From: a virus
Strand: one strand, 5' to 3'
IMG/VR virus record: IMGVR_UViG_3300025450_000013
DNA length: 64,000 nucleotides
The notes under the pieces were generated by a model. It made no database searches, had not been told where the DNA came from, and saw nothing but the letters and a program-made list of their open reading frames with translations. Positions 10,345 through 34,078 of the stretch are shown here, piece by piece. The translations under genes were made by a program, and so were the position numbers. The first letter of the stretch is position 1, and every line of letters begins with the position of its first letter.

Positions 10345-11517
10345 CTACTCTTTATTTAAAATGATGTTGATCATAGTATCGCCTGTGCCTGTAGCAGATA
10401 CCTTATATATCAAATCGAAATCTTTTGTTACAATTTTATATCTACCAATCTTATCTAGTAATATTTCTAGATAGGCAATCATTAGTTCTTTTGATATAGC
10501 AAGAGCAATACAAGAATGGACTCCATGACCCCATGCCAAATGGCCTGAGGTATCTCTATGTATATCAAACTTGTCAGGATCAGTAAACTTATTAGGATCT
10601 CTATTAGCAGAATCCAAACAAACGGCCACTCTATCTCCAGGTTTTAGATCAACACCATGTATAGTGATTTTTTCAGTTGTGGTTCTGGTAAATCTTCCTG
10701 TAGGAGTATTGAATCTTAGAGATTCGTTTATAGCAAAAGGAATAAGAGATTTATCTTTCAATAATATGTCTAGTTTGTTTTCTCTATATAGGTCCAATGT
10801 AAGAAACTGTAATGCTGATATCAATGAACCAGCACCAGATATAGTAGGAGCACCTGTGAATAGTGATGTTTTAGATTGATCTTTTAAAATAGGATCATTA
10901 AAAGTTTTTAAAAATTCGTTATACACACCAGGACCTTTAGAAGGTGTATTTCCATATATTACATTATCCAACACTCTATATTTAATGCTTAAATTACGAC
11001 TTCTTTCTTCAAAATTTTCAATATGATCCGAATAAACCGCATGTTGACTACATTCTTGTGTTTCTGATATAATATTTTTGACATAATCTTTTTCTAAAGG
11101 AAAATTTAAAATTTCCGCAATAGCCCATGATGCTAGTTCTTTTGTAATTTCCGAAACGTTTAATTGTGTTTGACCTTCAAAAAACTCAATTGCTTTTTTG
11201 GAAAACAAATCAACAACTCTCTTTATGTTGTCTTTGGTATAAGCATTTTTTAAAAGGTTTTTGTATTCGTTATGCAAAGGATTATCGCTCGTACCTAAGG
11301 TATGACCAAATCTAGGAGGATAATCAAAAGGTAAATTGCCTTTTGCTGATGAGAAAATCTCTGGATTACTCAGTATATAATAGACATCATCATATCTGGT
11401 TATGACATAAAGGTTATACTTTTCACTCCAATATGCTGTCTGACTATTTCGGAGTTCTTTGTATATGCTATGTTTGTTTAATAGCCATTCTCCGGATTGT
11501 GGTTCAAACATCACCAT
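10345..11517 (-). CDS. Cytochrome P450
   Basis: YVITRYDDV, DNP.H, K-helix ESLR, SANRDP..F.DPDKF, heme motif HLAWGHGVHSCIA; likely start 11517 (ORF track 11544). Confidence 0.93.
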   Translation of the reverse strand: MVMFEPQSGEWLLNKHSIYKELRNSQTAYWSEKYNLYVITRYDDVYYILSNPEIFSSAKGNLPFDYPPRFGHTLGTSDNPLHNEYKNLLKNAYTKDNIKRVVDLFSKKAIEFFEGQTQLNVSEITKELASWAIAEILNFPLEKDYVKNIISETQECSQHAVYSDHIENFEERSRNLSIKYRVLDNVIYGNTPSKGPGVYNEFLKTFNDPILKDQSKTSLFTGAPTISGAGSLISALQFLTLDLYRENKLDILLKDKSLIPFAINESLRFNTPTGRFTRTTTEKITIHGVDLKPGDRVAVCLDSANRDPNKFTDPDKFDIHRDTSGHLAWGHGVHSCIALAISKELMIAYLEILLDKIGRYKIVTKDFDLIYKVSATGTGDTMINIILNKE

Positions 11518-12955
11518 TTTTTCTCTCCGAATCAATAAATTCAAGTAACTTATCTCTATCTGGTTTTACAGCAACCGTTACAAAAGAATAGTTTTTCATA
11601 TACAAAACACTTTTTAGTTCAACTTCGGAATTATATATTTCTTTTATAATACTTTTAACTTCTTCTTCTTGACCAACAAGTTCTTTACTATCCGTAACAA
11701 TATAAAGTTCATTATAGATTTCATCCACTACAACCTCAAATCTATTTCTAGAACAAAACTTTTCTGCCTTTTCTATTATATCCAATGGATTTATTTCAAT
11801 ATCATTAATTTTTCTTAATTTATTTTTTCTAATGAAATATAAACCGTCTTCCTTTTCATCTACTATATCTTCGGTTATAACTCTTTTACCGTTCGGTAGA
11901 TCAACTGTAAGTAGCCCATCAATTTGTTTTGTATCATAGAAACCGGTGGTTGGTTTACCTAAAAACAAAGGATTAAAATTTTCTGTGGTCTTGTCTATGT
12001 AAGGAACAAGCAATGGTCCACCTGTCTCAGAACAACCAAATGCACTAATGATTTTCTTTAGTTTACCTTCTTTGATAACTTTTAACCACTTTGGGTTTAT
12101 AAATGATACAACTATGATAGTGGTGTCTGGTAAACCAATATCATCTTTTTCTATAGAATCAATGATAGAATCGGTAATAGATGCGTTTGGAGATAATAGT
12201 TTGGTGATATCACGATCTTTAGCAGTCAAAAAGATATAATAAGGATATCCTTTGTCTGCTTCTACTAAGTGTTGAACAGAAAGATAATGTGTCTTGCACT
12301 TACGAATAGATGGAAGATATAACACACTAAGAGAAGCACCATGGTTTATAGAAGACATATGGAATACGGCATCATTATTTTCCAGTTCCATGGGGTGCCA
12401 GTTATAACTACAAAGACCATAAATGTATTCATGGTTATGATATATTAGTTTTGGATCACCGGTGGTTCCACTACTATTACATAAAAGTATATCATCTCCT
12501 GGTCTAGCCCACACAGGGGTTTCATAAGAACATTTTAAAGAATTGGTTAAGTTCCATTCTTTTGTAATACAAATAACTTTATCTGAGTTTTTAATATAAT
12601 GTTGTATGGTTAGATCAAATGCATACATTGTATTTTTATCATCATAACAAACAAAAATATCCAAAGGCATATGTGCTTTTGCTTTTGGTTTAAATGTTTC
12701 GTTTGGTGAATGAAATCTATGTAAGACGGTAAGTTTTAATCCTAACTCAAATATGGCAAAAAGCAATGCTGTATAAAAAATATCGGTAGGTAAAAGTGTG
12801 ACGCCTATTTTATGACCTCTTTTAGCACCACATTCTATTAATTTATATTTACAATAGTCTATTATTCTGCAAAGACCATCTTTATCATATTTTTGGCCAT
12901 AACAGTAAAAAATTGCATCATCATTAATCCATTGTCTAGTAACAATTTTATACAT
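11504..12955 (-). CDS. Adenylate-forming (AMP-binding, ANL superfamily) enzyme
   Basis: P-loop SSGTTGDPK, FGCSETGG, TED, R...KINDIEINP, terminal VKPDR lysine. Confidence 0.85.
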   Translation of the reverse strand: MYKIVTRQWINDDAIFYCYGQKYDKDGLCRIIDYCKYKLIECGAKRGHKIGVTLLPTDIFYTALLFAIFELGLKLTVLHRFHSPNETFKPKAKAHMPLDIFVCYDDKNTMYAFDLTIQHYIKNSDKVICITKEWNLTNSLKCSYETPVWARPGDDILLCNSSGTTGDPKLIYHNHEYIYGLCSYNWHPMELENNDAVFHMSSINHGASLSVLYLPSIRKCKTHYLSVQHLVEADKGYPYYIFLTAKDRDITKLLSPNASITDSIIDSIEKDDIGLPDTTIIVVSFINPKWLKVIKEGKLKKIISAFGCSETGGPLLVPYIDKTTENFNPLFLGKPTTGFYDTKQIDGLLTVDLPNGKRVITEDIVDEKEDGLYFIRKNKLRKINDIEINPLDIIEKAEKFCSRNRFEVVVDEIYNELYIVTDSKELVGQEEEVKSIIKEIYNSEVELKSVLYMKNYSFVTVAVKPDRDKLLEFIDSERKNGDV

Positions 12956-13172
12956 TATTTAATTTATCTTTAAGATCCTGTATAAGAGTTTGGAATTGTT
13001 GTTTTTGATCATCGGTTAATTTATCATAATCAAAACCAGATTCGGTTATATTATTTGCTAGAAAAAAAGGTTCAAATATACTCTGAAGTAATGACTTGTC
13101 AACCCAGTTGTTATTAAAAGGGCACCAAACATAATTAGGTCCTGGAGAAGGAGGTCTTTTGGTATTTGTCAT
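12948..13172 (-). CDS. Small hypothetical protein
   Basis: 74 aa, coupled to neighbours (4-bp gap upstream, 8-bp overlap downstream). Confidence 0.6.
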   Translation of the reverse strand: MTNTKRPPSPGPNYVWCPFNNNWVDKSLLQSIFEPFFLANNITESGFDYDKLTDDQKQQFQTLIQDLKDKLNNV

Positions 13173-13176
13173 ATTA

Positions 13177-13836
13177 TTAACTCCAACTAATGTTTACGTA
13201 ACCGTTTCCACCATTACCACCGTTACCACCACCAGCATTACCACCTCCACCACCACCTCCAGCACCAACTACTACACTTAAATATGTATTCCATGCTGGA
13301 TATCCAGGTGTTGCAATATAAGTCCAAGTTTTAACAGCAAGCCCACCTGCTCCCCCTGGTACAGAAGGTCCTGTTCCGTTACCTGAACCACCGTATCCAC
13401 CGTTAAATGCACCACCTGTATCATTACTATCACCACCTGAAGCAGTACCAAGACCACCTCCACCCAAACTAGGTTGTGATCCACCACCTTGCCCACCATT
13501 TGCTATTACACCGTCAAAGATACTTGCGGTACCATCACCTCCACCGGATCCTGAATACCAATATATGAAAGCGGTTGAACCACCTCCACCGCCTCCTCCA
13601 CCACCAGCTACGGTAACACTTAAAGTTTTGTAGGCAGGAATTAAAAAAGAATAGGTACCAGGAGTAGTAAATGATTGAGAACCTGCAACAGGTTTACCAA
13701 CTGCTTGTGATAGTGATATTTTACCAGATGCAGAACCTAAAAGATATCTAACATTAGGATCACTCATAGAGATTTGAGTAATGCCATTTTTAACAATACT
13801 TGCAATTTGACTCATAGATGGGATAGAGATTGGCAT
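13177..13836 (-). CDS. Glycine-rich fibre-tip protein (gp38-like adhesin)
   Basis: Short helical N-terminus (ISMSD..VR.L.G..SG.ISLS...GK) then GGGGG runs separated by loops; directly after a chaperone-bearing fibre, as gp38 follows gp37. Confidence 0.65.
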   Translation of the reverse strand: MPISIPSMSQIASIVKNGITQISMSDPNVRYLLGSASGKISLSQAVGKPVAGSQSFTTPGTYSFLIPAYKTLSVTVAGGGGGGGGGSTAFIYWYSGSGGGDGTASIFDGVIANGGQGGGSQPSLGGGGLGTASGGDSNDTGGAFNGGYGGSGNGTGPSVPGGAGGLAVKTWTYIATPGYPAWNTYLSVVVGAGGGGGGGNAGGGNGGNGGNGYVNISWS

Positions 13837-13840
13837 TGTA

Positions 13841-15271
13841 TTATCCTATCTTAGATTCAAGTGCTTCAATTTTCTTTTGTTGCTCTTTAATGGCTTCAAT
13901 TAATAAAACGATTATTTTTTCATATTTGACAGCTTTTATACCGTTTTCTCTTACAGCTACGGCTTCTGGAAGGACTCTTTCAATTTCTTGTGCAATAACA
14001 CCAACATCATGTTTACGAACAAAGTATCCGTCTTCACCACCTTTTTCTTTAATGTAATCATCCGTCCAATCAAATTCCACACCACGGATCTTCTTAACTT
14101 TATTAATAGCATTTTCAATAACTGTCACATTTTCTTTAAGTTTTATATCAGATCCATAATATGCAGTAATATCATTTGAGGCCCAAATTTGATTTAGACT
14201 CCAGAATCCACCAGTGTTGAAAAGACCTATATTAGTTCCATTTGTTCTTATATAGACAGGTGTGTTTATATCTGTTCCTAAACTAAGTGCTCCACCATTT
14301 ACAACAACTGATCCCCACTGTGTTGACTGATATTGGTCAGTGAATTGTAGAATACCAGAACCACTTGAACCCGGATAAATTCTAATACCGTAGTTTCCAC
14401 CACCTGTTCTGAAAACACCACCATTACCATCAATATAACTATAAGTACCAAAAGTTGCTGAACTATCAACAGATAAAGATCCTTGAACTCTAAATGATGT
14501 ATAAGCAATACCATTATATTTTGGAATTGCTGCTGATCCTAAACTGTAAGCTGCATTGGCCCAAGCATATGCTCCACTCGCAACAGTACCGACATAATTG
14601 GAATTATATATTGCAGCATTTGCTTGGTTGAATCCTGCATTAGCAACACCAAATGCGTATCTTAATTGATAACCAATATTATTGGCATAGTTATATGCTG
14701 AAGTTGTATTAGCAGTAAGACCGGATACTGCACTTACAGTTAATCCTAAAGTGCTATTAGATTGATCAAATGAACTTGAAACATAATATTGCAATGCATT
14801 TGCTTGATCAAAAGCGGCCGCTGCATTGATTGTAGCACCATAGGCGATAGAATTTATAGAATTTGCAAATGTTCCTACTGAATTAACGGAACCAAATGCA
14901 CTATTAGATGTTAAATAAGCAACGTTTAATTTATCACTTGTTGATGAGATTAAATCATATGAAGCATTAGCAGCTGCCCATGCGGCATTAGCAGTATTGG
15001 CAATAACAAATGATGTTTGTGCGGCAAAGTAAATTCCATTGGCCCAATTAAAAGCAGCATTAGCAGTATTATAAGCCTCGACGGTCTTATTCTGAATTTC
15101 ACCACCAAAGTTAATAAAGATGCCTGATATATTTTCTAAATTAGCAGTAAGATTAGCGACAGAAGTATAAAGTTCACTAAAGTTATTATCAACCTTAGTA
15201 AAAGATACTCTCATTACATCGCCGGTACCGTCATTAGGAACTGTACCTATGTTAATATATTGTTGTGCCAT
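13841..15271 (-). CDS. Tail fibre with C-terminal intramolecular chaperone (peptidase S74)
   Basis: N-terminal INIGTVPNDGTGD..R..F.K...NF.ELY baseplate anchor; SDIKLKENV...GVIAQE..AVKYEK..LLIEAIKE. Confidence 0.9.
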   Translation of the reverse strand: MAQQYINIGTVPNDGTGDVMRVSFTKVDNNFSELYTSVANLTANLENISGIFINFGGEIQNKTVEAYNTANAAFNWANGIYFAAQTSFVIANTANAAWAAANASYDLISSTSDKLNVAYLTSNSAFGSVNSVGTFANSINSIAYGATINAAAAFDQANALQYYVSSSFDQSNSTLGLTVSAVSGLTANTTSAYNYANNIGYQLRYAFGVANAGFNQANAAIYNSNYVGTVASGAYAWANAAYSLGSAAIPKYNGIAYTSFRVQGSLSVDSSATFGTYSYIDGNGGVFRTGGGNYGIRIYPGSSGSGILQFTDQYQSTQWGSVVVNGGALSLGTDINTPVYIRTNGTNIGLFNTGGFWSLNQIWASNDITAYYGSDIKLKENVTVIENAINKVKKIRGVEFDWTDDYIKEKGGEDGYFVRKHDVGVIAQEIERVLPEAVAVRENGIKAVKYEKIIVLLIEAIKEQQKKIEALESKIG

Positions 15272-15297: not shown

Positions 15298-15305
15298 TAT
15301 TTATA
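15298..15305 (-). promoter_or_regulatory. T4-type late promoter TATAAATA
   Basis: Exact consensus; heads a gap-free run from the fibre at 15271 through P450 to gp16/gp17. Confidence 0.75.
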
Positions 15306-19265: not shown

Positions 19266-19283
19266 TATTTAGGATTATTTACC
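19266..19283 (-). promoter_or_regulatory. Tandem late-promoter-like motifs upstream of gp13
   Basis: GGTAAATA and CCTAAATA. Confidence 0.5.
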
Positions 19284-19884
19284 TGAACTTAGGACCTTCT
19301 ACCCATATAACAATTGACTTACGAATACCTAAGTGTACCGGTTTCACTCTATGGATCAGAAAAGATGGAAATGCTATAATCTTACCTCTAGTCATTTCAG
19401 GTGTTCTTGCATCTTCTTCCATTCCAAGGTTTATTTGAAATTCACCCCCTGAGAAATGAACTTGTGGTTCTGATAGTAACATAACCAAAGTTAATTTTCT
19501 GACAGAATCGGTACAATCATTATCACCTAATACCGTATCCATATGCCAGTCATACATTCCTTTATTCAAAGAATCATAAACAGTGTATTGAAAATCTTTA
19601 TAACCATAAAGGTCAAATCCAAAATAAGTTGAATTTATTCTATCAATCACACCGTTAAATTTATCAAAAATCCAATAATTCTCTTCATTTCTGCTGATAA
19701 ATTTTACCTTAGATTTTCTATGCTGTTCACAATCTTCACCTTTACCGACTGTTGTGGATCTATGTAATTCTTCTTTTTGACATAATTTTTCAATGTCATT
19801 CAATTCATTTTCAACAAATAAATTTTCCCACAAAATATAACTAGGTATATTTTTTCTAAAATTCACAGGATCATTTGAAATCAT
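19279..19884 (-). CDS. 2OG-Fe(II) oxygenase (prolyl 4-hydroxylase/PKHD-like)
   Basis: YDWHMD, RKLT, F.GGEF, FPSF..HRV.PV..G.RKSIV.W; start 19884 by TAATG coupling (ORF track 19956). Confidence 0.92.
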   Translation of the reverse strand: MISNDPVNFRKNIPSYILWENLFVENELNDIEKLCQKEELHRSTTVGKGEDCEQHRKSKVKFISRNEENYWIFDKFNGVIDRINSTYFGFDLYGYKDFQYTVYDSLNKGMYDWHMDTVLGDNDCTDSVRKLTLVMLLSEPQVHFSGGEFQINLGMEEDARTPEMTRGKIIAFPSFLIHRVKPVHLGIRKSIVIWVEGPKFR

Positions 19885-20345
19885 TATGTATTGGCCACCA
19901 CCATTTTGTTTGATATCATGTAATTTATTACGTTGTTTACCACATTTGGCATACATTTATTTGCCACATCATTAATTTCATCAAGTTGTGTTTTAAGTAT
20001 TAGATTGTTAGCATCATTTGCTGAATAACTATTTACATTGTATAAAAATGTATTAACATTTGTAAAATTAACAACTGTATTAACTTTTGGTGTAATAGCC
20101 CAAAAAGGAGTTGCTGATTGTATAAGATTTAAAATATCATTAGATGAAGTATTTGCAGTATCATATATTGTTAAATTTGTGTCGGTAGAACAATGAATAG
20201 GATAACCATTACTGGTTAACATAATATCCCCACGAACATCAATGGAGGTTGATAGTGTATTTTCAGAAACCTTATCACTCCAATATCTAACAGTAAATGT
20301 ATTTTCCTCTGGGAAAACATCTATAATTCTAAAAAATACGTTCAT
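19884..20345 (-). CDS. Hypothetical protein (possible adhesin partner/chaperone)
   Basis: 153 aa between the Gly-rich adhesin and the oxygenase. Confidence 0.55.
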   Translation of the reverse strand: MNVFFRIIDVFPEENTFTVRYWSDKVSENTLSTSIDVRGDIMLTSNGYPIHCSTDTNLTIYDTANTSSNDILNLIQSATPFWAITPKVNTVVNFTNVNTFLYNVNSYSANDANNLILKTQLDEINDVANKCMPNVVNNVINYMISNKMVVANT

Positions 20346-22104: not shown

Positions 22105-22107
22105 TAA

Positions 22108-22136
22108 TTACACCTTATGAGCATATACTATATACT
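22108..22136 (+). promoter_or_regulatory. Putative sigma70-type promoter of the heptose operon
   Basis: TTACAC-N17-TATACT upstream of GGAG RBS and ATG 22160. Confidence 0.5.
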
Positions 22137-22143: not shown

Positions 22144-22159
22144 TACTATGGAGTTTGCT

Positions 22160-23965: not shown

Positions 23966-24753
23966 TATTGATAACTGGTCATAAAGGATTTATCGGTCAA
24001 AACCTTGTTAATAGATTAAATGATAAACTCTTTTGCCTTTCTGATATTGACAGTTGCTTCAAAGACCTTTATTTAACACCTTGGGAAGATATAGAAGAAA
24101 TATGGCATATGGGTGCCATCTCTGATACTACTTGTACCGATTTAAATAAAATCCATACTTATAACATAGAATATACCATAAATCTATTTGAACTTGCTAT
24201 TCAATATAAGATACCAGTAAAGTATGCCTCGTCCGCGTCCGTGTATGGAAACACTAACTATCGTAGAGAGATTAATCCACTAAACTTCTATGCTATGTCT
24301 AAGGCTACTATTGATCGTTGGGTAATGGATAATTTATACAAGTTTGAATCTATACAAGGTTATCGTTTCTATAATGTATATGGTAAGCATGAAGACCATA
24401 AAGGTGGCCAGGCCAGTCCGATACATACATTCATCAAGCAGGCAAAAGAAACAGGAACGATTAAACTATTTGAAAACTCGGTTGCCTATATGAGAGACTT
24501 TATTTGGGTTGAAGATGTTATAAATTGTATGCTGTATGATAAACCAAGTGGTATATATGATCTAGGAACTGGAGTAGCAAGGTCGTTTGAAAGAGTGGCT
24601 GAAATCATAGCAGACAGATATAATGCCAAGTTAGAGTATGTTCCATTTCCAAAACACCTTGAAGACAAGTATCAATACTTCACTTGTTCATTAAATCACT
24701 TTGATCATACATTCACATCAATAGAGGAATATGTTAATGAAAGAGGAGTATAA
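23962..24753 (+). CDS. hldD: ADP-L-glycero-D-manno-heptose 6-epimerase-like SDR
   Basis: ITGHKGFIG, H.GAISDT, YASSASVYG, PLN.YA.SK, R.YNVYG..E.HKG..AS, RDFIWVEDV, YQYFT. Confidence 0.88.
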   Translation: MILITGHKGFIGQNLVNRLNDKLFCLSDIDSCFKDLYLTPWEDIEEIWHMGAISDTTCTDLNKIHTYNIEYTINLFELAIQYKIPVKYASSASVYGNTNYRREINPLNFYAMSKATIDRWVMDNLYKFESIQGYRFYNVYGKHEDHKGGQASPIHTFIKQAKETGTIKLFENSVAYMRDFIWVEDVINCMLYDKPSGIYDLGTGVARSFERVAEIIADRYNAKLEYVPFPKHLEDKYQYFTCSLNHFDHTFTSIEEYVNERGV

Positions 24754-25348
24754 AGAGATTGCACCTGGCTGGTTATGGCAGTCTAATGTCACTAGTGATC
24801 TTATGAAATATGATGAGAACTATGTAAAACCATACACTAAGTATGATGATACTCTCTCATATATTAGACTCAACTTTTGTCAAAAGTATGCCAAGTTTTA
24901 TTCGGTTCTTGATGTTGGATATGGCGACGGTAACTTTCTCAAAGTATGTAATCGTGAAGGATACAAATGTTTTGGTAATGATATATCAGGATATTCTTTA
25001 TCAGACGGAATAACTTTTACTGAAAATAGAAATATACCTGTTGACCTTGTTACGTTCTTTGATTGTATTGAACACTTTCCACAAGAAAATGTTGAAGAGG
25101 TATTAAAAGAACTAAATTGTAAGTATATCTGCATTTCGATTCCTTGGTGTCATTTTGATAATTTTGAAATATGGAAACACCGCAAGCCTAATGAACATTT
25201 CCATCATTTTGGTGTTAGAGGTGTTACTGAGTTATTGAATAGAGGTGGGTTTGATTTGATTGTTTCTGCTTCAATTGAAGATCAAGTTAGGTCAAACAAA
25301 GGCGGAATACCAAATATTTTAACTGTTATTGGAAAGAAAAGATGTTAA
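24731..25348 (+). CDS. Class I SAM-dependent methyltransferase
   Basis: VLDVGYGDGNF, FFDCIEH, EHFHHF. Confidence 0.85.
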   Translation: MLMKEEYKEIAPGWLWQSNVTSDLMKYDENYVKPYTKYDDTLSYIRLNFCQKYAKFYSVLDVGYGDGNFLKVCNREGYKCFGNDISGYSLSDGITFTENRNIPVDLVTFFDCIEHFPQENVEEVLKELNCKYICISIPWCHFDNFEIWKHRKPNEHFHHFGVRGVTELLNRGGFDLIVSASIEDQVRSNKGGIPNILTVIGKKRC

Positions 25349-26022
25349 ATTTATATTATTCGCATAGGACAGATGTTGAAAAAGCATACATTATTACAAT
25401 AAAGGGTAATAATATGTCCGAAAAATATTCAAAAAGATGTCAAGAATCGTGTAAAAATGTTGGTATGCAATATCAAGTATGGGACGCATTTGATGGAACT
25501 GGTGATGAAATAATAATACCAGAACACTCTAAGAATAATCCCATTTTTAAAATGGTGAAAATACAAGATCATCATATGACAAAAAGTGAACTTAGTTGTT
25601 TTCTTAGTCATTTAAGTTTATGGGCTAGATGTGTCGAGATAGACCAACCAATAGTTATACTTGAACATGATGCTATAATGGTAAAAAAGTTTGAAAATAA
25701 AACTAGTTATAATTCTATTGTATATCTTGGTTGTGAAATATGGGCAAAAAAAGGATCTAATATAGAAGATATTCCAATATATGGATCTGGTGGAATGAAT
25801 AATCTTTATATATATAAAGGACATGCATATTGTATAGATCCACAAGTTGCTAAGAATATGTTATCAGATGTTTTTAAGCGTGGTATATGGACAATTGCAG
25901 ATAGATTTATGAAAGCAGATTTATATAACATAACTCATCAAGGATTATATGCTTTTGAAAATAAATTTAACGATGAAGATTCTACTATAGTTCCAAGAGA
26001 GAAAGATGAATATACATGTTAG
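25342..26022 (+). CDS. Glycosyltransferase family 25-like
   Basis: AYIITI, DAFDG, E.SCFLSH..LW, IVILEHDA, HAY.I.P..AK. Confidence 0.8.
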   Translation: MLNLYYSHRTDVEKAYIITIKGNNMSEKYSKRCQESCKNVGMQYQVWDAFDGTGDEIIIPEHSKNNPIFKMVKIQDHHMTKSELSCFLSHLSLWARCVEIDQPIVILEHDAIMVKKFENKTSYNSIVYLGCEIWAKKGSNIEDIPIYGSGGMNNLYIYKGHAYCIDPQVAKNMLSDVFKRGIWTIADRFMKADLYNITHQGLYAFENKFNDEDSTIVPREKDEYTC

Positions 26023-26852
26023 ATGAAAATATGCAAAATTATTTAAGTCATATGTTTGACATGGTTAGTGATTTAAGAGACTTAAAGTTATATGAAAGAA
26101 CCAATACATCTAAGAATCCTTTAAATCATTATGGTCGTAGGGCTTTCAGTCAGTCAGACGAAGATGGTATTACACAAGAGATTATGAAACGTATAGGAGT
26201 TGATAATGGAGTTTTTGCTGAATTTGGAGTAGGATCAGGTTTAGAATGTAATACATTATTGTTAGCTGGATTAGGTTGGTCAGGGTTTTGGGTTGACGCT
26301 GGAAACATATTACCTAAAATTGAACAATCTGCAAATCCAAAATTTTCATTTTTTAAACGTCATATAACATTAAATAACGTATTAGAAACATACTTACAGT
26401 GTTTGAAATATATTAATAAAGAAGAAACAGATTTTATTTCTTTTGATTTTGAAGGTAATGATTATTATTTAATTGAGAGATTATTGCAATCTGGAGTATC
26501 TCCTAAAGTATTCGTAGTTGAATATAACGCTAAATTTATACCACCCATTGAATGGAAAGTTAAATATCATGAAAATCTAATATGGGAATATGATGATTAT
26601 TTTGGTGCTTCTCTTATGTCATATGTTAAATTGTTTGAAAAACATAATTATTTTCTTGCATGTTGTAATAGTTTTACAGGAGCAAATGCTTTCTTTATTA
26701 AAAACAAATATAAAGAATTTTTTAGTGATATTCCAAAATCAATCAATGATATTTGGGTTGAGCCTAGATATTATATTACTAAAAAGTATGGTCATAAGAG
26801 TTCTGTTAGGACTGTAGAATTGTTGCTTAATAATTTAAACTCTTGTCAATAA
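26016..26852 (+). CDS. FkbM-like methyltransferase
   Basis: FSQSDEDGI, EFGVG.G.ECNT, SFDFEGNDY, P.V.VVEYN, YFGASL, G.NAFF. Confidence 0.75.
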   Translation: MLDENMQNYLSHMFDMVSDLRDLKLYERTNTSKNPLNHYGRRAFSQSDEDGITQEIMKRIGVDNGVFAEFGVGSGLECNTLLLAGLGWSGFWVDAGNILPKIEQSANPKFSFFKRHITLNNVLETYLQCLKYINKEETDFISFDFEGNDYYLIERLLQSGVSPKVFVVEYNAKFIPPIEWKVKYHENLIWEYDDYFGASLMSYVKLFEKHNYFLACCNSFTGANAFFIKNKYKEFFSDIPKSINDIWVEPRYYITKKYGHKSSVRTVELLLNNLNSCQ

Positions 26853-28053
26853 CAGATATCCAATCACCCATCTTCTGTTGACGCCAAACAGTAACATCAG
26901 GAAACCAATCTGATTTACCTCCGTTTTCGGCAGCACACCAAGTAAAATAACCAACCACAATATCATAAAGATATGTTTTAATACCTAATGCGCCAGCAGC
27001 GACCGAAACGCTTGAACTACTGGTATAACACATTTTACACAAGCTAAGAATAGCAAGCGTATCATCCCAATCTTTTATATCTTTTGTTAAATCAATTACG
27101 CCTTCTGGACATGTTTCTGCTCCCATACAAACAGAAATTAGTGTTCCTTGGTGCTTAATCTTATCAATAAGGTATTCAATTGGTATTGTTCTCAGATCAT
27201 TTTCTGAGTGTTCTTTATCACCCGTCCAATTTAAAGCAATTAAATTGTCATACATTTTAAGTTTTTGTTTCCACTTTGCTAGATAAACTGGATTAGGTTC
27301 TAAATATTTTTCATTACCAGGTTTTTCTACTTTCAAATTAAATGGTAAACTCATAGAAGGTACCCAATAATCATATTTGATTGTTGGATCTACTGGAAAA
27401 ACTTTAAAGTTTCTTGATATAACATTCTTTAAACTATTATCAGTGTAGTAATATACAAAAGCACCCATGTCTTTTAACATAGGAATCCATCTACTGAATA
27501 TCATTTCGTCGCCAAGCCCAGCTTCTCCTATGACGCATATTTTAGATCCTTTAATATTTTGATAACCAAACCATCTATCTACATTTGGAGGAGGAAGTTT
27601 TTCATTAGTCCAAAACGCACCATTTCTTCCAATCTCCGTTTCAATAAACGCTTCTTTAAATTTACCCTTTCTGTGTAAAAACCATCCTATATCTAAGTGT
27701 TTATCCTCACATTCTATTTGATTGTTTTTGATATACTCGTAACCTTCGTCATATCTACCAAGTCTAGTTAGATATTGAGCGTATTGCCTTATATCCGTTT
27801 TATCTTTAGATTTAGTTATATCCATGTATTCTTGAAATAGTTCTAAAGATTTGTCAATTTCACAAAGATTGTAATGACAAATTGCTGAATTTTTAAGAAC
27901 ATCAGGATGTCTATATTCTAATAAATCTAATGTTAGTAGATTCTGATTAATAGACTCCCGAAACATTTTTTTATTATAATATTCTATTGATAATGATTCG
28001 GAAGCCTCAACAGATTTATTTATTTGAAAAGTATTCATCAATCGCTCTATCAA
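26827..28053 (-). CDS. TPR + GT-B glycosyltransferase (GT9-like)
   Basis: Helical N-terminus; EAGLGDEMIFSRW, DYWVPSMSLP, LNWTG, WDDTLAIL, AGALG, WFP...WRQ...GDW. Confidence 0.78.
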   Translation of the reverse strand: MIERLMNTFQINKSVEASESLSIEYYNKKMFRESINQNLLTLDLLEYRHPDVLKNSAICHYNLCEIDKSLELFQEYMDITKSKDKTDIRQYAQYLTRLGRYDEGYEYIKNNQIECEDKHLDIGWFLHRKGKFKEAFIETEIGRNGAFWTNEKLPPPNVDRWFGYQNIKGSKICVIGEAGLGDEMIFSRWIPMLKDMGAFVYYYTDNSLKNVISRNFKVFPVDPTIKYDYWVPSMSLPFNLKVEKPGNEKYLEPNPVYLAKWKQKLKMYDNLIALNWTGDKEHSENDLRTIPIEYLIDKIKHQGTLISVCMGAETCPEGVIDLTKDIKDWDDTLAILSLCKMCYTSSSSVSVAAGALGIKTYLYDIVVGYFTWCAAENGGKSDWFPDVTVWRQQKMGDWISVIDKSLNY

Positions 28054-29734
28054 TATCTACTTGACTATATCTCGGCGGTTTGTGAACCTGAACCAATATT
28101 TTAGTCAAAGCAGCAACATTATTATAATTATTAAGAGAGAAAGAAACATCCTCTTGTGTAGCTTTGTTTTTTTCAAACATTTCTAACCAATTCGTATTGT
28201 AGATATATTCAACTAAACAAACCTCTATATCTATATTATTTTGAAGACATAGAATTGCTTCTGAAGGAGCTTTAGAGAATTTATCCATACAAAATTTCAT
28301 ATCAAACATTTTAAATGTGTCTGGATGAATTAATCTTTTATGTGTCGGATCAATCAAAGCCAAATCACTACGATGATGTGGAACTTGAATTTCCCAAATT
28401 GCACCATGTTTACTGATTCTATACATTTCCTTAATGACATTAACTGTATCATCAAGATGTTCAATTATATCTTTAGCGACAATGTGATCGTATTCACCAT
28501 CAGGAATGTCCCAATTTTTAGAATTGAGATCCACAATTCTATCTGGTCTTACTATTGGAGAATAATCAACATTATCATAACCTTTCACTTTATCAAAACC
28601 ACAACCAAGGTTTATCTTTTTACATTCTTTATCACAGCTTGGTAGGTCGATGTGTTTTAAATTAAACTCATTTTCAAGATCTTGATACATTTCCTGAAAC
28701 ACATCATTCCATTTTGTTGGATTAGTTTGCCTATAAACCCTAACAGATTTATAAAATGGTGAAGTTTTTGATTCTGGAGCACCAAGAGTCCATGTGTGAT
28801 AAGGGAGCGTTGGTGTGAATACCCAAGTCTCTTTACCAAGAGCAGCTGCCGCATGAGCGATACTTGTGCAAGAGGTTATAATAAGATCCAATTGTGATAA
28901 TGCAGAAAGAGTGTCTTCCCATGAAATTAATAGATATTGAAGATCAGTTATATTTTCAGGAAGAATTTGTAGATTATGATCTCTCTGTAGGCTATAGATA
29001 TCCAAATCTTCATGTTTAGCAAGGTTTATCATAAACTCTGGAGGAAATCTACGAAACTGTTGATGTTCAAATTTTGGATTACCAGACCATCTAATTCCAA
29101 CTTTTTTCTTTCCATTATTTTTAATAATGGAAGACCAAACTTCATAAGAAGAAGGTATCGGAGATAGATATGGTTCATTTGGTAAATTATCATATGTATG
29201 ACCTAAAACCCAACCAGCACTGAAACCCGGAATCCAGTAATCATGTTGGACCGTATGTGATTGGTCTCTCTGAATAACACCATCTACGCCAGGAACTCTT
29301 GTGAAAATTGAAGCAATTTCAGGAGCAGCTGCTAAATAAACCTTATTGGCTCCTAATTTTTTTGCAGTTTGTGCAAAACGAGAATGAATAATTTCATCGC
29401 CATAACCACCTTCAAGAGAGATGATAATAGATTTTCCTTTAATATCATGTTCTTCTGGATTGTATATTGGTGCAGAAGTTTGTAGATGACCACTACCGTA
29501 GACGTTAATGAATCTACCAGATTCTAAAAGTTGAGAACCTTCACGATAATTTCCTTGCTGTAAAAGAAACCAACCTCTGTTGAAATTATGTCTAAGCCAC
29601 ATCTCAGGATTTTTATTTCCTTGCGGGTCAAGAATATTATCTTTACCCAAAGCCTGTAATTTTTCAGATATTTTCCAACCTTCTTCAAACTCACCCTTTA
29701 ACATATGCTCAAGTTGCAAATCAATATCATGCAT
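28016..29734 (-). CDS. GT9-like glycosyltransferase fused to a C-terminal SAM methyltransferase
   Basis: EGGYGDEIIHSRF, VGIRWSGNP, WEDT...LDLIITSCTSIAHAAAALGK; then INLGCG, DIIEHL, EMYRI, VPH, DPTH. Confidence 0.85.
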   Translation of the reverse strand: MHDIDLQLEHMLKGEFEEGWKISEKLQALGKDNILDPQGNKNPEMWLRHNFNRGWFLLQQGNYREGSQLLESGRFINVYGSGHLQTSAPIYNPEEHDIKGKSIIISLEGGYGDEIIHSRFAQTAKKLGANKVYLAAAPEIASIFTRVPGVDGVIQRDQSHTVQHDYWIPGFSAGWVLGHTYDNLPNEPYLSPIPSSYEVWSSIIKNNGKKKVGIRWSGNPKFEHQQFRRFPPEFMINLAKHEDLDIYSLQRDHNLQILPENITDLQYLLISWEDTLSALSQLDLIITSCTSIAHAAAALGKETWVFTPTLPYHTWTLGAPESKTSPFYKSVRVYRQTNPTKWNDVFQEMYQDLENEFNLKHIDLPSCDKECKKINLGCGFDKVKGYDNVDYSPIVRPDRIVDLNSKNWDIPDGEYDHIVAKDIIEHLDDTVNVIKEMYRISKHGAIWEIQVPHHRSDLALIDPTHKRLIHPDTFKMFDMKFCMDKFSKAPSEAILCLQNNIDIEVCLVEYIYNTNWLEMFEKNKATQEDVSFSLNNYNNVAALTKILVQVHKPPRYSQVDIDRAIDEYFSNK

Positions 29735-29772: not shown

Positions 29773-29780
29773 TATTTATA
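29773..29780 (-). promoter_or_regulatory. T4-type late promoter TATAAATA upstream of the glycosyltransferases
   Basis: Exact consensus; second GATAAATA at 29786-29793. Confidence 0.7.
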
Positions 29781-29788
29781 AAATATAT

Positions 29789-32700
29789 TTATCTTGTCAA
29801 TCCAACTGCTGTAAAACTGAAACTAGCGGATACAGCCGCCCAACTACTGCTTCCCAATTGCGTAGGAGAAAAGACGTTTCCTGAAATAGTTCCATTACCT
29901 AATTCTCCATAACCAGAACTATTATAACCCCATACAAATAAAGCACTGTCGGATCTTATACCATAGCTAGAATATTGACTAGCATAAACAGCTGTCCAAC
30001 TACTATTTCCTATTTTTGTAGGTGATGTTATGGTACTTCCTCTTGCTGGATTTCCAGTGTAAGCTGCTCCACCAGTATATAGTGCGCCATTGTTACCAAT
30101 TGCGGCAGCAGTTGAACCACCGTTGCAGTTTGGTATAAAGCTAAACCCTGTACCAATTTGTGTTGGAGAACTGAGAATAAAAGTTGATGTATCGGTTCCT
30201 CCCAAATAATTAGATCCACTAGATGCATTAAGACCAGTACCAAATAAAACACCATCTATTCTTAACATCCAACTAGAATAATCTCCACTACTGCCGTTTT
30301 GGATACAAACAGCAGTCCACGAACTTGTTCCAATTTGAACAGGTGATGAATAGGAGGTGAGATTACCAGTACCTAAATATCCATATCCCCAGTAAGCTTG
30401 ATATCCCCATCCCCATAATGTACCATCTAATTTAATTCCTAAAGAACCGAAGCCACCACAAGAAACAGCTTTCCATGAACTTGTTCCAATTTGAACAGGT
30501 GATGAATATGTAGTAGCATTGTTGGTTCCTAGAGTGTTATAAAAATTATAACCCCATCCCCATAATGTCCCGTCTGCTCTAATTGCAAGCGCACAACTAC
30601 TTCCAACAGACACTAATGTCCAAGAACTAGTTCCAACCTGAACAGGTGATGAATAAAATGCAGTTGCAGTATTAACACCCAATGCTCCAGATGCATTGTA
30701 ACCCCATGAAAATAGGCTTCCTCCGCTTCTAATTCCTGCGGATTGATTAACACCTGTGGATATTGAAGTCCAACTACTAGTACCTACTTGGACAGGAGAA
30801 GATACATATGTATATTGTGCTATATTCTGACCAAGTTCTCCACCTGCATTGTAACCCCAAGACCATAAAGTATTATCCGCTCTTATTGCTAAAACATGAC
30901 AATAACCAACGGATACTGATTTCCAACTACTAGTACCTACTTGAACAGGAGAATAATATGATAAATTGTTATTCTGTCCTAATTGCCCGTATGCTCCGTT
31001 ACCCCATCCAAACAAAGCACCATCGTTTCTGATAGCAAAATTTGCATATAGTCCTAAACTAATTGCTGACCAACTGTTAGTTCCAAGTTGAGCCAAAGAT
31101 CCAGTAACATCAGTTGCTAGAGCACCATAAGTACTTGTACCCCATGCCCATAAAGAACCATCAGTAGTTACGCCAAGCACATGCGCATGGCCTAATGACA
31201 CAGCATTCCATGAACTTGTTCCAATCTGGACTGGAGATGAAGTTGCTGTAGTGTTTCCATTACCAAGTTGATAAAAAACATTATATCCCCATGCCCATAA
31301 TGTCCCATCTGCTCTAATTGCTACTGTTGTTCCGCTAACATTATTACCATTTAATCCTAAAACTTTCCAACTATTTGTTCCTACTTGAACTGGAGTTTGA
31401 ACTACTAAAGTACTGTTTAATCCTAGCGAACCGTTTGTGTTGGATCCCCACATAAAAAGACCACCATCTGATCTAATTGCACCAACATGAGAAGCACCAG
31501 CCGCAACAGAAGTCCAACTACTTTTTGATATTTGGTATGGAGCGTCCGAAAATGCCTGTCCTGATATAAGAGTAGTATAACCCCAAGACCATAAAGTATT
31601 ATCCGAACTTATTGCTAAAGCTGTGCTATGTCCTATAGAAACAGCTTTCCATGAACTTGTTCCAATCTGGACTGGAGAGTTTATTGTAGTAGGTATAATT
31701 CTTCCAACTGTAATCGTATTACCACCATAACCACCCCAAGTATAAAGAGCTCCTAAAGAATCAATAACTCCACCACCACAAAAATTATCAGTATTACCTG
31801 AACCACCTCCAGTTGGAAGCACAGACCAGCTGGAGGTTCCTATTTGTACTGGAGAAGATATAGAAAAAATACCAGCACCACCGCCTACCGCTGAGTTGAT
31901 AGCGCAAGTTTGAAACAACAATCCATCAGTTCTTAGAAGTAAACTAGAATAACCACCAAGAACTGATACAGCTTTCCACGAACTTGTTCCGATTTGAACA
32001 GGTGATGAATATGTAGTAGCATTATTAGTACCTAACTGACCGTATGTATTGGTTCCCCACGCAAACAAAGCACCATCAGATCTGATGGCCATCACTGTTG
32101 ATAAAGAAACACTCACAGATGTCCAACTACTTGTTCCGATTTGAACAGGTGATGATTGAGTCGTTATGCTATTAGTACCTAAAGTTCCAGTACCGCCGTA
32201 TCCCCAAGTAAATAAAGCACCATCAGATCTGATAGCTGAAGAAACCCAAAAACTGGCTGAAATAGCTTTCCATGAACTTGTTCCAATTTGCGAAAATGAT
32301 CCCCTATTAACCAAATCATTGGTACCTAACTGACCGTATGTTGCTTGTGCTCCAGTGGCAAACAAACCACCATCAGATCTGATAGCCATTGTATATGAAT
32401 AACCACAAGAGACAGCTGTCCAACTACTGAAACCAATTTGAGATAATGTTTGAATTGTAGTTCCTGCTGGAGATCCCAATTGAGCGCCAACTCCCCATGT
32501 AAATAAAGATCCAGTAGAATTTATTGCTCCTGCAATAGCACTATTTCTAAAATCTCCTATAACATATACACCTGCTGGCTGACTGAAATTTCCTGTTGAA
32601 ATTTGTACAGGAGAGGATTGATTAGTACTAGTTCCAGTACCAACTGTATAAGAAATGTTGGCACCCCAACCCCATAAACTAAAATCACCAGCCCTCACCG

Positions 32701-34078
32701 CAAAAAGTGCGTTATCATAATTACTTCCGGTATTACTTAATCCGATAGCCACCCAGCTACTTGCTCCAACCTGAACAGGTGATGATTGATTCGTTGTGTT
32801 ATTATTACCTAATTCACCAGCTGAACCATAACCCCAAGTCCATACTGTATTATCTGCTCTTAATGCTATTGCACTATTAAAACCAGACATTATAGCTTTC
32901 CATGAACTTGTTCCAACCTGAACAGGCGATGAATATGAAGTAGTATTATTTGTTCCGAGAGTAGGATAAAAACTTTGGCTTCCCCAAGCAAATAAAGCAC
33001 CGTCTACCCTGATCGCATGCCCATAAGTTCCACCAGTATTATCCCCAACACTTGCCATTACCCAACTACTTGTTCCAACATGAGTTGGTAATGTAACGTA
33101 TGATGAATTTGTTGGTGTATAAGTAGTATAACCCCAAAAAAATAAAGCACCAGTTGTTGTTATACCGACGGTTGTTGAACTAGCGGCTGCTATACTCGAC
33201 CAACTACTTGTTCCAATCTGGACTGGAGATGAATAGTTAGTATTAACACCATTACCAAGCTGCCATACGTTATTATTACCCCATGCCCACAGTGTTCCGT
33301 CTGATCTAATTGCGTATGTTTGTAATGTTCCACAAGAAACAGCTTTCCATGAACTTGATCCAATTTGAATAGGGGATGCATACGTTAAAGTGTTATTAAC
33401 ACCTAACTGACCGCTACTACCAATACCCCATCCCCATAAAGAACCATCTGATCTTATTGCCATTGTATGACTAGTGCCAGAAGATACTGATTTCCAACTT
33501 AAATTTCCTATCTGTGTTGGTGTGTAACCAGCATTTAAACCTAACTGACCGGAATTGTTATTACCACATCCCCACAAAGTATTATCTGATGCAATTGCAC
33601 AGGCATGAGAGTCACCTCCGGAAACAGCTTTAAAACTCATTCCGACTCCAATTTGAATTGGAGATGAAGTTGATGTAGTGTTTCCATTACCAAATTGGTA
33701 ATAAGTATTAAAACCCCATGCCCACAGTGTTCCGTCAGTTTTTATTCCATAACCAGTTGATGAACCGATAGAAACAGCTGTCCAGCTTGTGGAACCAGGA
33801 GAAGGAGCCTTTGTTGCTATAAAAAGTAAACCTTGACCTAAAGTGTAATTGTTAGTGGCACCCCATGTGAACAAAGCACCATCAGATCTAATTGCCGCTG
33901 TAACGTTTAATCCTGCACTGACTACAGACCAACTACTTGTTCCAATTAAAACAGGCGATGAATAGCTAGTAGTAGTTCCATAACCAATAGTTCCTGATGT
34001 TCCACGACCCCAGGTAAATAGATTTTTTTTAGTAGAACCTCCAGAACTTGATTTTAATAATAGTTCATGTAATAGCAT
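29789..34078 (-). CDS. RCC1/BLIP-II repeat beta-propeller protein (28 repeats), putative fibre tip
   Basis: Repeated AIRSDG.L..WG.N..G.LG...SSPVQIGTSSW..VS.G; follows a fibre and chaperone. Confidence 0.9.
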   Translation of the reverse strand: MLLHELLLKSSSGGSTKKNLFTWGRGTSGTIGYGTTTSYSSPVLIGTSSWSVVSAGLNVTAAIRSDGALFTWGATNNYTLGQGLLFIATKAPSPGSTSWTAVSIGSSTGYGIKTDGTLWAWGFNTYYQFGNGNTTSTSSPIQIGVGMSFKAVSGGDSHACAIASDNTLWGCGNNNSGQLGLNAGYTPTQIGNLSWKSVSSGTSHTMAIRSDGSLWGWGIGSSGQLGVNNTLTYASPIQIGSSSWKAVSCGTLQTYAIRSDGTLWAWGNNNVWQLGNGVNTNYSSPVQIGTSSWSSIAAASSTTVGITTTGALFFWGYTTYTPTNSSYVTLPTHVGTSSWVMASVGDNTGGTYGHAIRVDGALFAWGSQSFYPTLGTNNTTSYSSPVQVGTSSWKAIMSGFNSAIALRADNTVWTWGYGSAGELGNNNTTNQSSPVQVGASSWVAIGLSNTGSNYDNALFAVRAGDFSLWGWGANISYTVGTGTSTNQSSPVQISTGNFSQPAGVYVIGDFRNSAIAGAINSTGSLFTWGVGAQLGSPAGTTIQTLSQIGFSSWTAVSCGYSYTMAIRSDGGLFATGAQATYGQLGTNDLVNRGSFSQIGTSSWKAISASFWVSSAIRSDGALFTWGYGGTGTLGTNSITTQSSPVQIGTSSWTSVSVSLSTVMAIRSDGALFAWGTNTYGQLGTNNATTYSSPVQIGTSSWKAVSVLGGYSSLLLRTDGLLFQTCAINSAVGGGAGIFSISSPVQIGTSSWSVLPTGGGSGNTDNFCGGGVIDSLGALYTWGGYGGNTITVGRIIPTTINSPVQIGTSSWKAVSIGHSTALAISSDNTLWSWGYTTLISGQAFSDAPYQISKSSWTSVAAGASHVGAIRSDGGLFMWGSNTNGSLGLNSTLVVQTPVQVGTNSWKVLGLNGNNVSGTTVAIRADGTLWAWGYNVFYQLGNGNTTATSSPVQIGTSSWNAVSLGHAHVLGVTTDGSLWAWGTSTYGALATDVTGSLAQLGTNSWSAISLGLYANFAIRNDGALFGWGNGAYGQLGQNNNLSYYSPVQVGTSSWKSVSVGYCHVLAIRADNTLWSWGYNAGGELGQNIAQYTYVSSPVQVGTSSWTSISTGVNQSAGIRSGGSLFSWGYNASGALGVNTATAFYSSPVQVGTSSWTLVSVGSSCALAIRADGTLWGWGYNFYNTLGTNNATTYSSPVQIGTSSWKAVSCGGFGSLGIKLDGTLWGWGYQAYWGYGYLGTGNLTSYSSPVQIGTSSWTAVCIQNGSSGDYSSWMLRIDGVLFGTGLNASSGSNYLGGTDTSTFILSSPTQIGTGFSFIPNCNGGSTAAAIGNNGALYTGGAAYTGNPARGSTITSPTKIGNSSWTAVYASQYSSYGIRSDSALFVWGYNSSGYGELGNGTISGNVFSPTQLGSSSWAAVSASFSFTAVGLTR

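Follow-up and report, generated by a model that had tools for sequence, protein, structure and literature searches.

Adhesin heptosylation in bacteria, viral prolyl 4-hydroxylases (P4H) accompanying collagen-like proteins, and virion glycosylation in other viruses are all known already. The P4H and collagen cases include the P4H of PBCV-1, the collagen hydroxylase/glycosyltransferase L230 of mimivirus, and the P4H of Bacillus anthracis with BclA; virus-encoded virion glycosylation is known from the capsid and tail of mycobacteriophages and from Vp54 of chloroviruses. Cyanophage and aquatic phage genomes are rich in 2-oxoglutarate (2OG) oxygenases, “LPS” (lipopolysaccharide) glycosyltransferases, and sugar-nucleotide genes, which are usually filed as auxiliary metabolic genes. 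Here, we set against this background three groups of enzyme genes embedded among the fibre genes of a DNA stretch of 64,000 nucleotides (nt) from IMG/VR virus record IMGVR_UViG_3300025450_000013; we call this whole stretch the window. It comes from an uncultured T4-like aquatic myovirus and covers its late structural genes, from portal gp20 to baseplate gp5. Two published accounts matter for the comparison: viral P4H genes are abundant and their role “remains cryptic” (PMC9301287), and in FlmG of Caulobacter crescentus the TPR part binds flagellin and is required for its modification, while the GT-B domain glycosylates (PMC7591256).

The fibre–enzyme arrangement in the window is real and not a product of chance. 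Three times, as the initial annotation had described, a fibre-type gene is followed on the same strand, always the minus strand, by genes for soluble enzymes: an RCC1-repeat protein by two transferases with a GT9-like fold (module A), a collagen-like protein by a small open reading frame (ORF) and a 2OG oxygenase (module B), and a Gly-rich protein by a small ORF, an adenylate-forming enzyme of the ANL superfamily, and a cytochrome P450 (module C). Folds, motifs, gene order, and the conservation of the pairings in relatives are established. We propose that, ahead of assembly, the three embedded enzyme sets act in the cytoplasm on fibre-type proteins of the phage itself and modify them, a proposal whose chances we judge to be evenly balanced; since the fibre–enzyme pairings are kept in relatives, the attachment proteins of the phage are probably glycosylated and hydroxylated, and perhaps oxidised, by its own enzymes. 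Tailoring of the neighbouring protein is the best reading for module A, a reasonable one for module B, and an open one for module C. One general objection applies throughout, namely that within a syntenic structural module adjacency can be inherited without any functional link.

Megablast of both halves of the region against isolate phages gave no DNA-level match. The gp15 of the window is about 40% identical to that of the closest isolates (cyanophages and pelagiphages), and IMG/VR holds many relatives, with gp15 identities of 42–89%.

RCC1 protein, GT9-like transferases, and a predicted heptose island

The features of module A are the following (aa, amino acids; SAM, S-adenosylmethionine; AF2, AlphaFold2):
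34088–34582, minus strand: tail-fibre assembly chaperone-like gene, directly upstream of the RCC1 gene (Pfam Phage_tail_APC 3e-13)
29789–34078, minus strand: RCC1-repeat giant protein, 1429 aa (Pfam WD40_RLD PF25390 1e-218, RCC1 5e-122)
29773–29780, minus strand: TATAAATA motif ahead of o572, with further same-strand copies at 22195–22202, 20385–20392, and 15298–15305
28016–29734, minus strand: o572, with a short helical N-terminus, a GT9-fold domain (about 94–360), and a class-I SAM methyltransferase domain (about 370–555) (AF2, VIA-align, Foldseek)
26827–28053, minus strand: o408, with a TPR domain (about 1–135) and a GT9-like domain (hhalign, profile against PDB)

Module A is the strongest of the three cases. 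A scan with o572 gave 80 loci at 46–68% identity. Among the 60 distinct homologues, the immediate upstream neighbour is an RCC1 gene in 45, a contig end in 6, and another large protein in 4, an RCC1 gene lying one gene off in about 5 more; among the 54 informative ones, RCC1 is immediate in 45. The initial annotation had suggested examining whether each enzyme type co-segregates with a type of fibre tip, and for the GT9-like enzymes it strongly does. In the four loci without an RCC1 neighbour, the large upstream protein has no match to the RCC1 protein of the window. Most often, a fibre and a chaperone gene precede RCC1, whose product ranges from 750 to more than 3300 aa; then come o572, GT25 (sometimes joined by o408 and other enzymes), a heptose cassette on either strand, and gp13. 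A GT25 homologue comes directly after o572 in half of the distinct relatives (30/60), and GT2-like and sugar O-methyltransferase-like enzymes occur as extra genes in these loci.

The RCC1–transferase pairing persists through rearrangements, down to 25% identity. The cultured cyanophage BUCT-ZZ01, which grows on Synechococcus elongatus PCC 7942, has in succession a tail fibre gene, a 166-aa ORF, an RCC1 gene (“BNR”; 42% identity, E 1e-120), and an o572 orthologue at 48%; in S-SRM01, which is distantly related, a TPR protein whose gene follows an RCC1 gene matches o408 in its C-terminal part (25% identity, E 8e-17). A search of 185,579 cellular genomes for the transferase family found two matches only, both on contigs of metagenome-assembled genomes that resemble phage DNA, and on these sequence searches the GT9-like family appears essentially phage-restricted. 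We found no paper on RCC1 with GT9 in phages, nor on phage heptosylation of fibres. S-SRM01, a cultured freshwater cyanophage, also deserves a mention of its own: three separate RCC1 genes stand directly after its long-tail-fibre gene (L166, NC_070963 216850–235713), interleaved with a TPR-GT9-like gene, a 2OG oxygenase, a sulfotransferase, a beta-1,4-glycosyltransferase, and an epimerase, a cluster that the genome paper leaves undiscussed.

The name “GT9-like”, given to both transferases in the initial annotation, stands by the structure model of o572 and the paralogy of o408, and finds no backing in sequence searches of Pfam or PDB. The AF2 model of o572, built with 26 homologues, has a predicted local distance difference test score (pLDDT) of 89, and its best four PDB structure matches by VIA-align are all GT9: 3tov (Z 18.0; residues 94–360, root-mean-square deviation 3.1, 249 aligned), WaaF (17.2), TibC (15.9), and WaaC (15.6). 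The next GT-B fold, outside GT9, comes at Z 11.6, more than 4 Z units beneath the GT9 matches, and Foldseek agrees with the GT9 assignment. The methyltransferase domain matches phrog_6636 (2.5e-15) and carries an LNLGCG SAM motif. Residues 122–404 of o408 are paralogous to the GT9-like domain of o572 (hhalign probability 100%, E 3e-42), the two proteins having in common the motifs E-G-x-G-D-E-I-I and T-S-C-[TS]-S-x-[AS]-H-x-A, and residues 3–132 match consensus TPR proteins in PDB (profile, 5e-13). GDE and TSCTS-AH are invariant motifs among o572 homologues; G112-D113-E114, invariant in 26 of them, comes right after strand 102–106, the motif is also present in o408, and the region would be equivalent to the catalytic Asp13 of WaaC. 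As GT9 is seen by structure and not by sequence, we speak of a GT9-like fold and not of GT9 members.

The RCC1 gene belongs to the fibre module, since it is preceded by a fibre gene and an assembly-chaperone gene. Its product comprises about 28 blades, roughly four propellers, with a recurring SSPVQIGTSSW motif; Ser and Thr make up 27% of the residues and charged residues are almost absent. We propose this protein as the candidate glycosylation substrate.

A plus-strand island on which the initial annotation was silent (22148–26852) separates module A from module B. It contains the following genes:
22148–23329, plus strand: HldE-like kinase/adenylyltransferase (NCBIfam NF008454 8.9e-87, 291.7 bits against a cut-off of 521)
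23316–23666, plus strand: WbuC cupin, 116 aa (NCBIfam/Pfam)
23663–23965, plus strand: minimal HAD phosphatase, 100 aa (phrog_1238 5e-28)
23962–24753, plus strand: heptose 6-epimerase-like short-chain dehydrogenase/reductase (TIGR02197 1.3e-63, 215 bits against a cut-off of 274.6)
24731–25348, plus strand: SAM methyltransferase (Pfam Methyltransf_23 3.7e-11)
25342–26022, plus strand: GT25 glycosyltransferase (Pfam Glyco_transf_25 2.9e-16)
26016–26852, plus strand: 278-aa ORF, function not assigned

As predicted from these matches, the island covers most of the ADP-L-glycero-D-manno-heptose pathway. The cupin and the minimal HAD phosphatase (23316–23965) stand where GmhA and GmhB are expected, and the pair may be a non-orthologous replacement in this pathway. 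In the scheme that we propose, the island would make ADP-heptose, the two GT9-fold transferases would put heptose on Ser/Thr of the RCC1 propeller protein, which their TPR and N-terminal helical parts would grip as substrate; GT25 would then extend the glycan, which the fused and free methyltransferases would O-methylate. That the RCC1 protein is the target is, in our estimation, moderately probable.

Several observations pull the other way. The HldE-like and epimerase-like proteins score below their equivalog cut-offs, and the window has no SIS-type GmhA isomerase; Pfam (Glyco_transf_9 PF01075, E ≤ 0.01), NCBIfam, and phmmer and profile searches against PDB returned no GT9 match for o572 or o408; the sugar island lies on the strand opposite to the RCC1 and transferase genes; and GT25 with heptose is classically LPS chemistry. 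Because heptose, GT9, and GT25 are LPS chemistry, remodelling of the host surface stays the main rival for module A: during infection, the products of the island would, together with the GT9-like enzymes, GT25, and the methyltransferases, change the LPS of the host or another glycan of its envelope, a change that could give superinfection exclusion or keep progeny off debris, and the adjacency to RCC1 would be an inherited order. Indeed, the structural neighbours WaaF and WaaC are LPS heptosyltransferases, GT25 is an “LPS biosynthesis” family, the HldE-/HldD-like genes make the donor of an LPS-core sugar, and the separate strand of the island goes with a weak sigma-70-like site at 22107–22136 (such sites being at chance level in our scan). 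The LPS-type genes of cyanophages have, moreover, long been read as serving host-surface remodelling. We nevertheless hold this explanation to be rather unlikely here: the transferases are too divergent for Pfam GT9 and carry TPR and methyltransferase fusions typical of protein-directed enzymes such as FlmG, they are phage-restricted, they lie inside a late fibre operon behind TATAAATA, and RCC1 is kept as their neighbour through the rearrangements. Picocyanobacterial LPS has also been reported to lack heptose, a point that would apply if the host of this phage were a picocyanobacterium.

A collagen-like protein and a 2OG oxygenase

Module B comprises three contiguous genes:
20356–22104, minus strand: collagen-like Gly-rich structural protein, 582 aa, 37% Gly (Pfam Collagen PF01391 3e-12, 46.5 bits against a cut-off of 27.2)
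19884–20345, minus strand: o153, small ORF of 153 aa with a conserved N-terminal part of about 80 aa (BLAST synteny)
19279–19956, minus strand: 2OG-Fe(II) oxygenase of the P4H/PKHD type, its true start probably at 19884 (PF13640, 2OG-FeII_Oxy_3, 8.3e-12, 46.4 bits against a cut-off of 27)

Pattern scans of IMG/VR with single proteins missed the relatives of the 2OG oxygenase, as well as those of the ANL enzyme of module C, and both were recovered by gp15 anchoring and alignment-based scans; co-occurrence for module B was scored only in relatives readable far enough upstream. In these, an o153-like ORF always accompanies the oxygenase. Loci with the oxygenase (L007, L008, L019, L020, L075, and, partly, L014) also have a G-X-Y protein rich in Gly and Pro along with the o153-like ORF, all three being missing in about 20 other distinct loci, and on the gp15 tree every one of the 36 scorable loci is either (1,1) or (0,0) for the module. 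One locus, L058, has a Pro-poor G-X-Y protein without an oxygenase. Outside this group, in the Kanaloavirus phages S-CAM9 and S-8S56, an S74 tail fibre of collagen-like (GPT/GQK) sequence precedes an unrelated small ORF and then two 2OG oxygenases, about 32% identical to that of the window; this recurrence is independent and is more telling than the contrasts on the tree.

The 582-aa protein has four unbroken Gly-X-Y tracts (77–163, 170–256, 279–362, and 470–562) of 28–31 triplets each, and among its 117 triplets Pro stands 27 times in Y and 13 times in X. A Pro in Y as a general signature of hydroxylation was considered and dropped, as relatives and S-CAM9 have Pro mainly in X. Many of the triplets are GGX and are compatible with polyglycine II as an alternative to the collagen triple helix. 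Between the third and fourth tracts lies a His/Cys-rich insert (about 363–470), and HGQPG and CGQPG units are repeated in tracts 1 and 2; insert and repeats may form a metal-binding or disulfide ladder.

In the oxygenase, H114-x-D116, H178, and R188-K189-S190 are invariant in 11 orthologues, and a profile search against PDB matched PKHD-type hydroxylases (6e-8) and the prolyl 4-hydroxylase 6iuq (6e-5). For o153, no Pfam or PHROG match was found, and the ESM Atlas matches (scores ≤ 0.83, template-modelling score below 0.35) are uninformative. We suggest that the oxygenase would hydroxylate Pro in X-Pro-Gly triplets of the collagen-like protein two genes upstream, with o153 acting as an accessory or chaperone protein. 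Whether the collagen-like protein is in fact the substrate we regard as an even call.

What keeps us from rating it higher is, first, that the nearest solved relatives of the enzyme are of the PKHD type rather than collagen P4H. Second, the 36 loci contain only two phylogenetically independent contrasts (sign-test p 0.5), and, as the three genes are contiguous, the trio would be gained or lost jointly in any case. Third, other cyanophage copies of 2OG oxygenases have different neighbours, such as tRNA genes or a preceding uvsW, so that the link to fibres is limited to particular 2OG lineages and does not extend to the whole class.

Gly-rich tip, small ORF, and two candidate tailoring enzymes

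Module C has the following features:
13841–15271, minus strand: tail fibre, 476 aa, with a gp9/10-like N-terminus and a C-terminal Peptidase_S74 intramolecular chaperone (Pfam Peptidase_S74 4e-14, T4_gp9_10_N)
13177–13836, minus strand: Gly-rich 219-aa protein, candidate fibre tip (AF2; weak PHROG minor-tail matches)
12948–13172, minus strand: o74, small ORF of 74 aa (BLAST and alignment)
11504–12955, minus strand: ANL-superfamily adenylate-forming enzyme, 483 aa (Pfam AMP-binding 5.5e-12, 45.6 bits against a cut-off of 29.9)
10345–11544, minus strand: cytochrome P450, whose likely start gives 388 aa (Pfam p450 1.4e-14, 54.2 bits against a cut-off of 22.8)

The P450 has the ESLR (ExxR) motif and the HGVHSC(I)A heme-Cys loop, and it matches PDB 8fbc (3.7e-39); its I-helix reads SGAGSL, without the usual acid-Thr pair. 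The ANL enzyme carries SSGTTGDPK and GCSETGG, the core motifs (P-loop SSGTTGxPK and GxxE) being invariant in 16 homologues. The AF2 model of the 219-aa protein (pLDDT 71) matches best the fibre of cyanophage Pam3 (Z 7.0), the Bxb1 tail-tip (Z 6.5), and the ALK glycine-rich domain (Z 4.7), so that the modelled fold fits a Gly-rich domain of a fibre or tail tip.

In relatives, the gp15–gp16 interval is either empty or holds a fibre gene only, a fibre, a tip, and a small ORF, or these and a P450. A profile scan shows that all eight distinct P450s of at least 56% identity follow a Gly-rich tip and a two-domain small ORF, and they do so in at least three positions: the gp15–gp16 interval, before gp13 (L174), and beside other fibre genes (L171). 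The small ORF of the relatives has its N-domain, of about 80 aa, wherever there is a tip, and the C-domain, of about 70 aa, is o74 with its conserved aromatic motif Y-[FV]-W...W; the N-domain is not found in the window, which has lost it. Nine of the nine loci in which a P450 and/or an ANL enzyme follows have the o74 domain, compared with none of the three loci without such an enzyme. In L195 and L196, the ANL enzyme takes the slot of the P450, preceded by the tip and the two-domain ORF and followed by gp13. The tip module resembles a docking slot into which a P450, an ANL enzyme, both, or neither has been recruited, and the strongest case for linking these enzymes functionally to the fibre comes from the fused adaptor. 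In our scheme, the P450 (here together with the ANL enzyme) would act on the Gly-rich tip or on the o74-domain protein linking tip and enzyme. That the neighbouring structural protein is the target is possible in this module but doubtful.

The doubt comes from the wider families. P450s of 42–55% identity belong to clusters with fatty-acid desaturases and hydroxylases on large viral contigs, and the ANL gene belongs to the replication module, flanked by phoH and gp33/gp59/gp32, in about 25 of 28 viral loci. The tip of the window lacks the NHNxYG, PQQG, and APQNA motifs common to all other P450-linked tips, and no redox partner for the P450 was seen. A tblastn search of the P450 against isolate phages gave no match, and the contexts of its metagenomic relatives, on contigs of 150–360 kb, were taken from IMG/VR only. 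The notion that the ANL enzyme might be unique to the window was rejected, about 70 metagenomic relatives and the viral loci being at hand.

The families have further contexts of their own. On contigs of up to 348 kb (L001, L175, L179, L181–L183, L186, L188, and L189), a P450 of 42–55% identity stands with two fatty-acid desaturases, a fatty-acid hydroxylase, and several ORFs of about 100, 200, and 400 aa, which looks like a viral lipid-modifying gene set. In L197–L221 (e.g., L215:4179–5579), the ANL gene lies between phoH/PD-(D/E)XK nuclease genes and gp33/gp59/gp32 and the next gene is a conserved 94-aa ORF whose N-terminus resembles a signal peptide.

Two rivals have to be weighed at this point. 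According to the first, auxiliary or moron genes would have landed as cargo in hypervariable slots flanking the fibres; the P450 and the ANL enzyme above all, and perhaps also the 2OG oxygenase, would be of this kind and act on small molecules or host targets and not on the virion. The gp15–gp16 and pre-gp13 intervals, which hold no genes in distant relatives and a changing set in close ones, are what one would expect of such insertion hot spots, as are the desaturase/hydroxylase contexts of the P450 family, the normal place of the ANL gene beside phoH, and the scatter of 2OG oxygenases over cyanophage genomes. This account is, however, improbable to us, because tip, small ORF, and P450 move as a unit to at least three positions, the o74 domain tracks the presence of the enzymes and is fused to a tip-associated domain, collagen-like proteins without Pro have no oxygenase, and the pairing of a collagen-like fibre with 2OG enzymes recurs in Kanaloavirus with non-homologous small ORFs.

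The second rival takes the o74-domain protein itself as the substrate of the P450 (with or without the ANL enzyme), for instance for a Tyr/Trp cross-link, after the manner of a ribosomally synthesised and post-translationally modified peptide (RiPP), so that the product would be a small protein or peptide and not the fibre. The o74 domain is the only partner that strictly co-occurs with the enzymes, its Y-[FV]-W...W motif is conserved, the P450 has weak NCBIfam matches to cyclodipeptide- and RiPP-associated P450s, and the I-helix without the acid-Thr pair would suit such a role. Yet in relatives the domain is fused to one that always follows the Gly-rich tip and is thereby tied to the fibre, no protease, leader, or transporter genes lie nearby, and all the NCBIfam P450 scores are far below their cut-offs; we rank this possibility as very unlikely.

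Set against these data, the initial annotation fares unevenly. Its enzyme classes (2OG, adenylating, P450) are confirmed by Pfam matches and motifs. Its “gp38-like adhesin” is not supported: the 582-aa protein is collagen-like, neither this protein nor the 219-aa one has a gp38 match in Pfam, and gp38 is absent among the listed matches of the 219-aa model; “receptor-binding tip” is a label and not a finding. As for the co-segregation of enzymes with tips, it is borne out for the 2OG oxygenase with little statistical power (36 loci, 2 contrasts) and for the P450 within its own clade (8 distinct loci, at least three positions), not at 55% identity or below; for the ANL enzyme it mostly fails, about 25 of 28 loci being away from fibre genes. 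The tailoring interpretation is, thus, partly supported, by co-segregation in modules A and B and for the P450, the ANL enzyme being for the most part the exception.

The late block and comparison with known systems

Late structural genes of a T4-like myovirus, joined in one block on the minus strand, make up nearly all of the 64-kb window, in the order portal gp20, gp19, sheath gp18, terminase gp17, gp16, gp15, gp14, gp13-like adaptor, several fibre genes, and baseplate gp8, gp6, gp25, and gp5; the heptose island is its sole plus-strand stretch. The initial annotation placed the enzymes under late-promoter motifs. The late-promoter-like motif TATAAATA occurs 10 times in the window against 10.8 expected by chance, which speaks against such a role; 9 of the 10 copies are on the coding strand and 7 sit 23–91 nt upstream of a start codon, the distance being, for example, 39 nt for o572, 91 nt for the collagen-like gene, 40 nt for o153, and 27 nt for the S74 fibre. 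This placement and strand bias suggest a fit with a late-promoter role, as far as sequence can tell, though the total count equals chance. None stands directly ahead of the 2OG, ANL, and P450 genes, which adjoin their upstream genes with gaps or overlaps of a few bases. Scans of the window for sigma-70 promoters and terminators were at chance level and were not used. The donors, the acceptor proteins, and the chemistry are what we infer, as is late expression of the enzymes, the latter from operon position alone.

Other features of the block are recorded here for completeness:
1693–2232, minus strand: free-standing ORF of 179 aa with a NUMOD3 motif (homing-endonuclease type)
35458–36429, minus strand: six-bladed propeller of the NHL/SGL type, 323 aa, a candidate binding module in the fibre/baseplate region
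48490–55116, minus strand: DUF4815 structural protein, 2208 aa, with a Hom_end-associated Hint match at about residue 1478
56480–57109, minus strand: protein with a Laminin_G_3/ConA-like lectin fold, 209 aa, a candidate binding module in the fibre/baseplate region

A homologue of the NUMOD3 ORF lies between two halves of gp17 in L168 and L169 (gp17[300]-ORF[212]-gp17[399]), which suggests that a mobile endonuclease or intron splits gp17 there. The giant baseplate/fibre protein at 48490–55116 possibly contains an intein.

If the enzymes act on attachment proteins, recognition, stability, and shielding would hinge on a chemistry that is invisible to sequence-based host-range prediction, and a large phage-restricted family of protein glycosyltransferases would be defined. 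One can go further and imagine a modular “fibre-tailoring” layer in T4-like aquatic phages, made up of methylated heptose glycans placed on RCC1 proteins by phage-restricted, TPR- or methyltransferase-fused GT9-fold enzymes, of P4H-type hydroxylation of collagen-like fibres, and of a two-domain adaptor docking P450 or ANL enzymes on a Gly-rich tip for RiPP-like cross-linking or acylation. In this full form the idea is a long shot; were it true, phages would tune host range and virion stability by swapping enzymes and not through fibre sequence alone, and the long-unexplained “2OG oxygenase” and “LPS” genes of cyanophages would have a function. The tailoring idea is directly testable because cultured carriers exist (BUCT-ZZ01, S-SRM01, and S-CAM9/S-8S56).

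Compared with the known cases of virion glycosylation, the locus stands apart, as those use other glycosyltransferase families and are not known to involve an RCC1 substrate, a heptose pathway carried by the phage, or a methyltransferase fusion. Module B resembles the viral and bacterial P4H systems, with an enzyme of the same PF13640 class and its HxD...H triad, encoded by a virus together with a Gly-X-Y protein; it differs in that enzyme and collagen-like gene form an operon pair inside a tailed-phage structural module.

For module A, one of the closest analogies is FlmG, whose architecture o408 matches with its N-terminal TPR and C-terminal GT-B parts (PMC7591256). Both would be soluble cytoplasmic enzymes acting on a structural protein before its assembly, which for o408 is a prediction, but FlmG transfers pseudaminic acid and not heptose, and its TPR region spans about 310 aa as against about 135 aa in o408. 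The bacterial autotransporter heptosyltransferases (BAHT) TibC, with TibA, and Aah, with AIDA-I, share with o572 and RCC1 the placing of a GT9-fold enzyme gene beside that of a large, repetitive, Ser-rich protein of surface or adhesin type (TibC Z 15.9, 248 aligned); by analogy, ADP-heptose would be the likely donor, and modification would take place in the cytoplasm before export or assembly. The phage system nonetheless departs from the BAHT enzymes in four respects: o572 and o408 show no detectable match at the sequence level, they are fused to a methyltransferase or TPR domain, their substrate would be an RCC1 beta-propeller and not a beta-helix, and the phage carries its own donor pathway.

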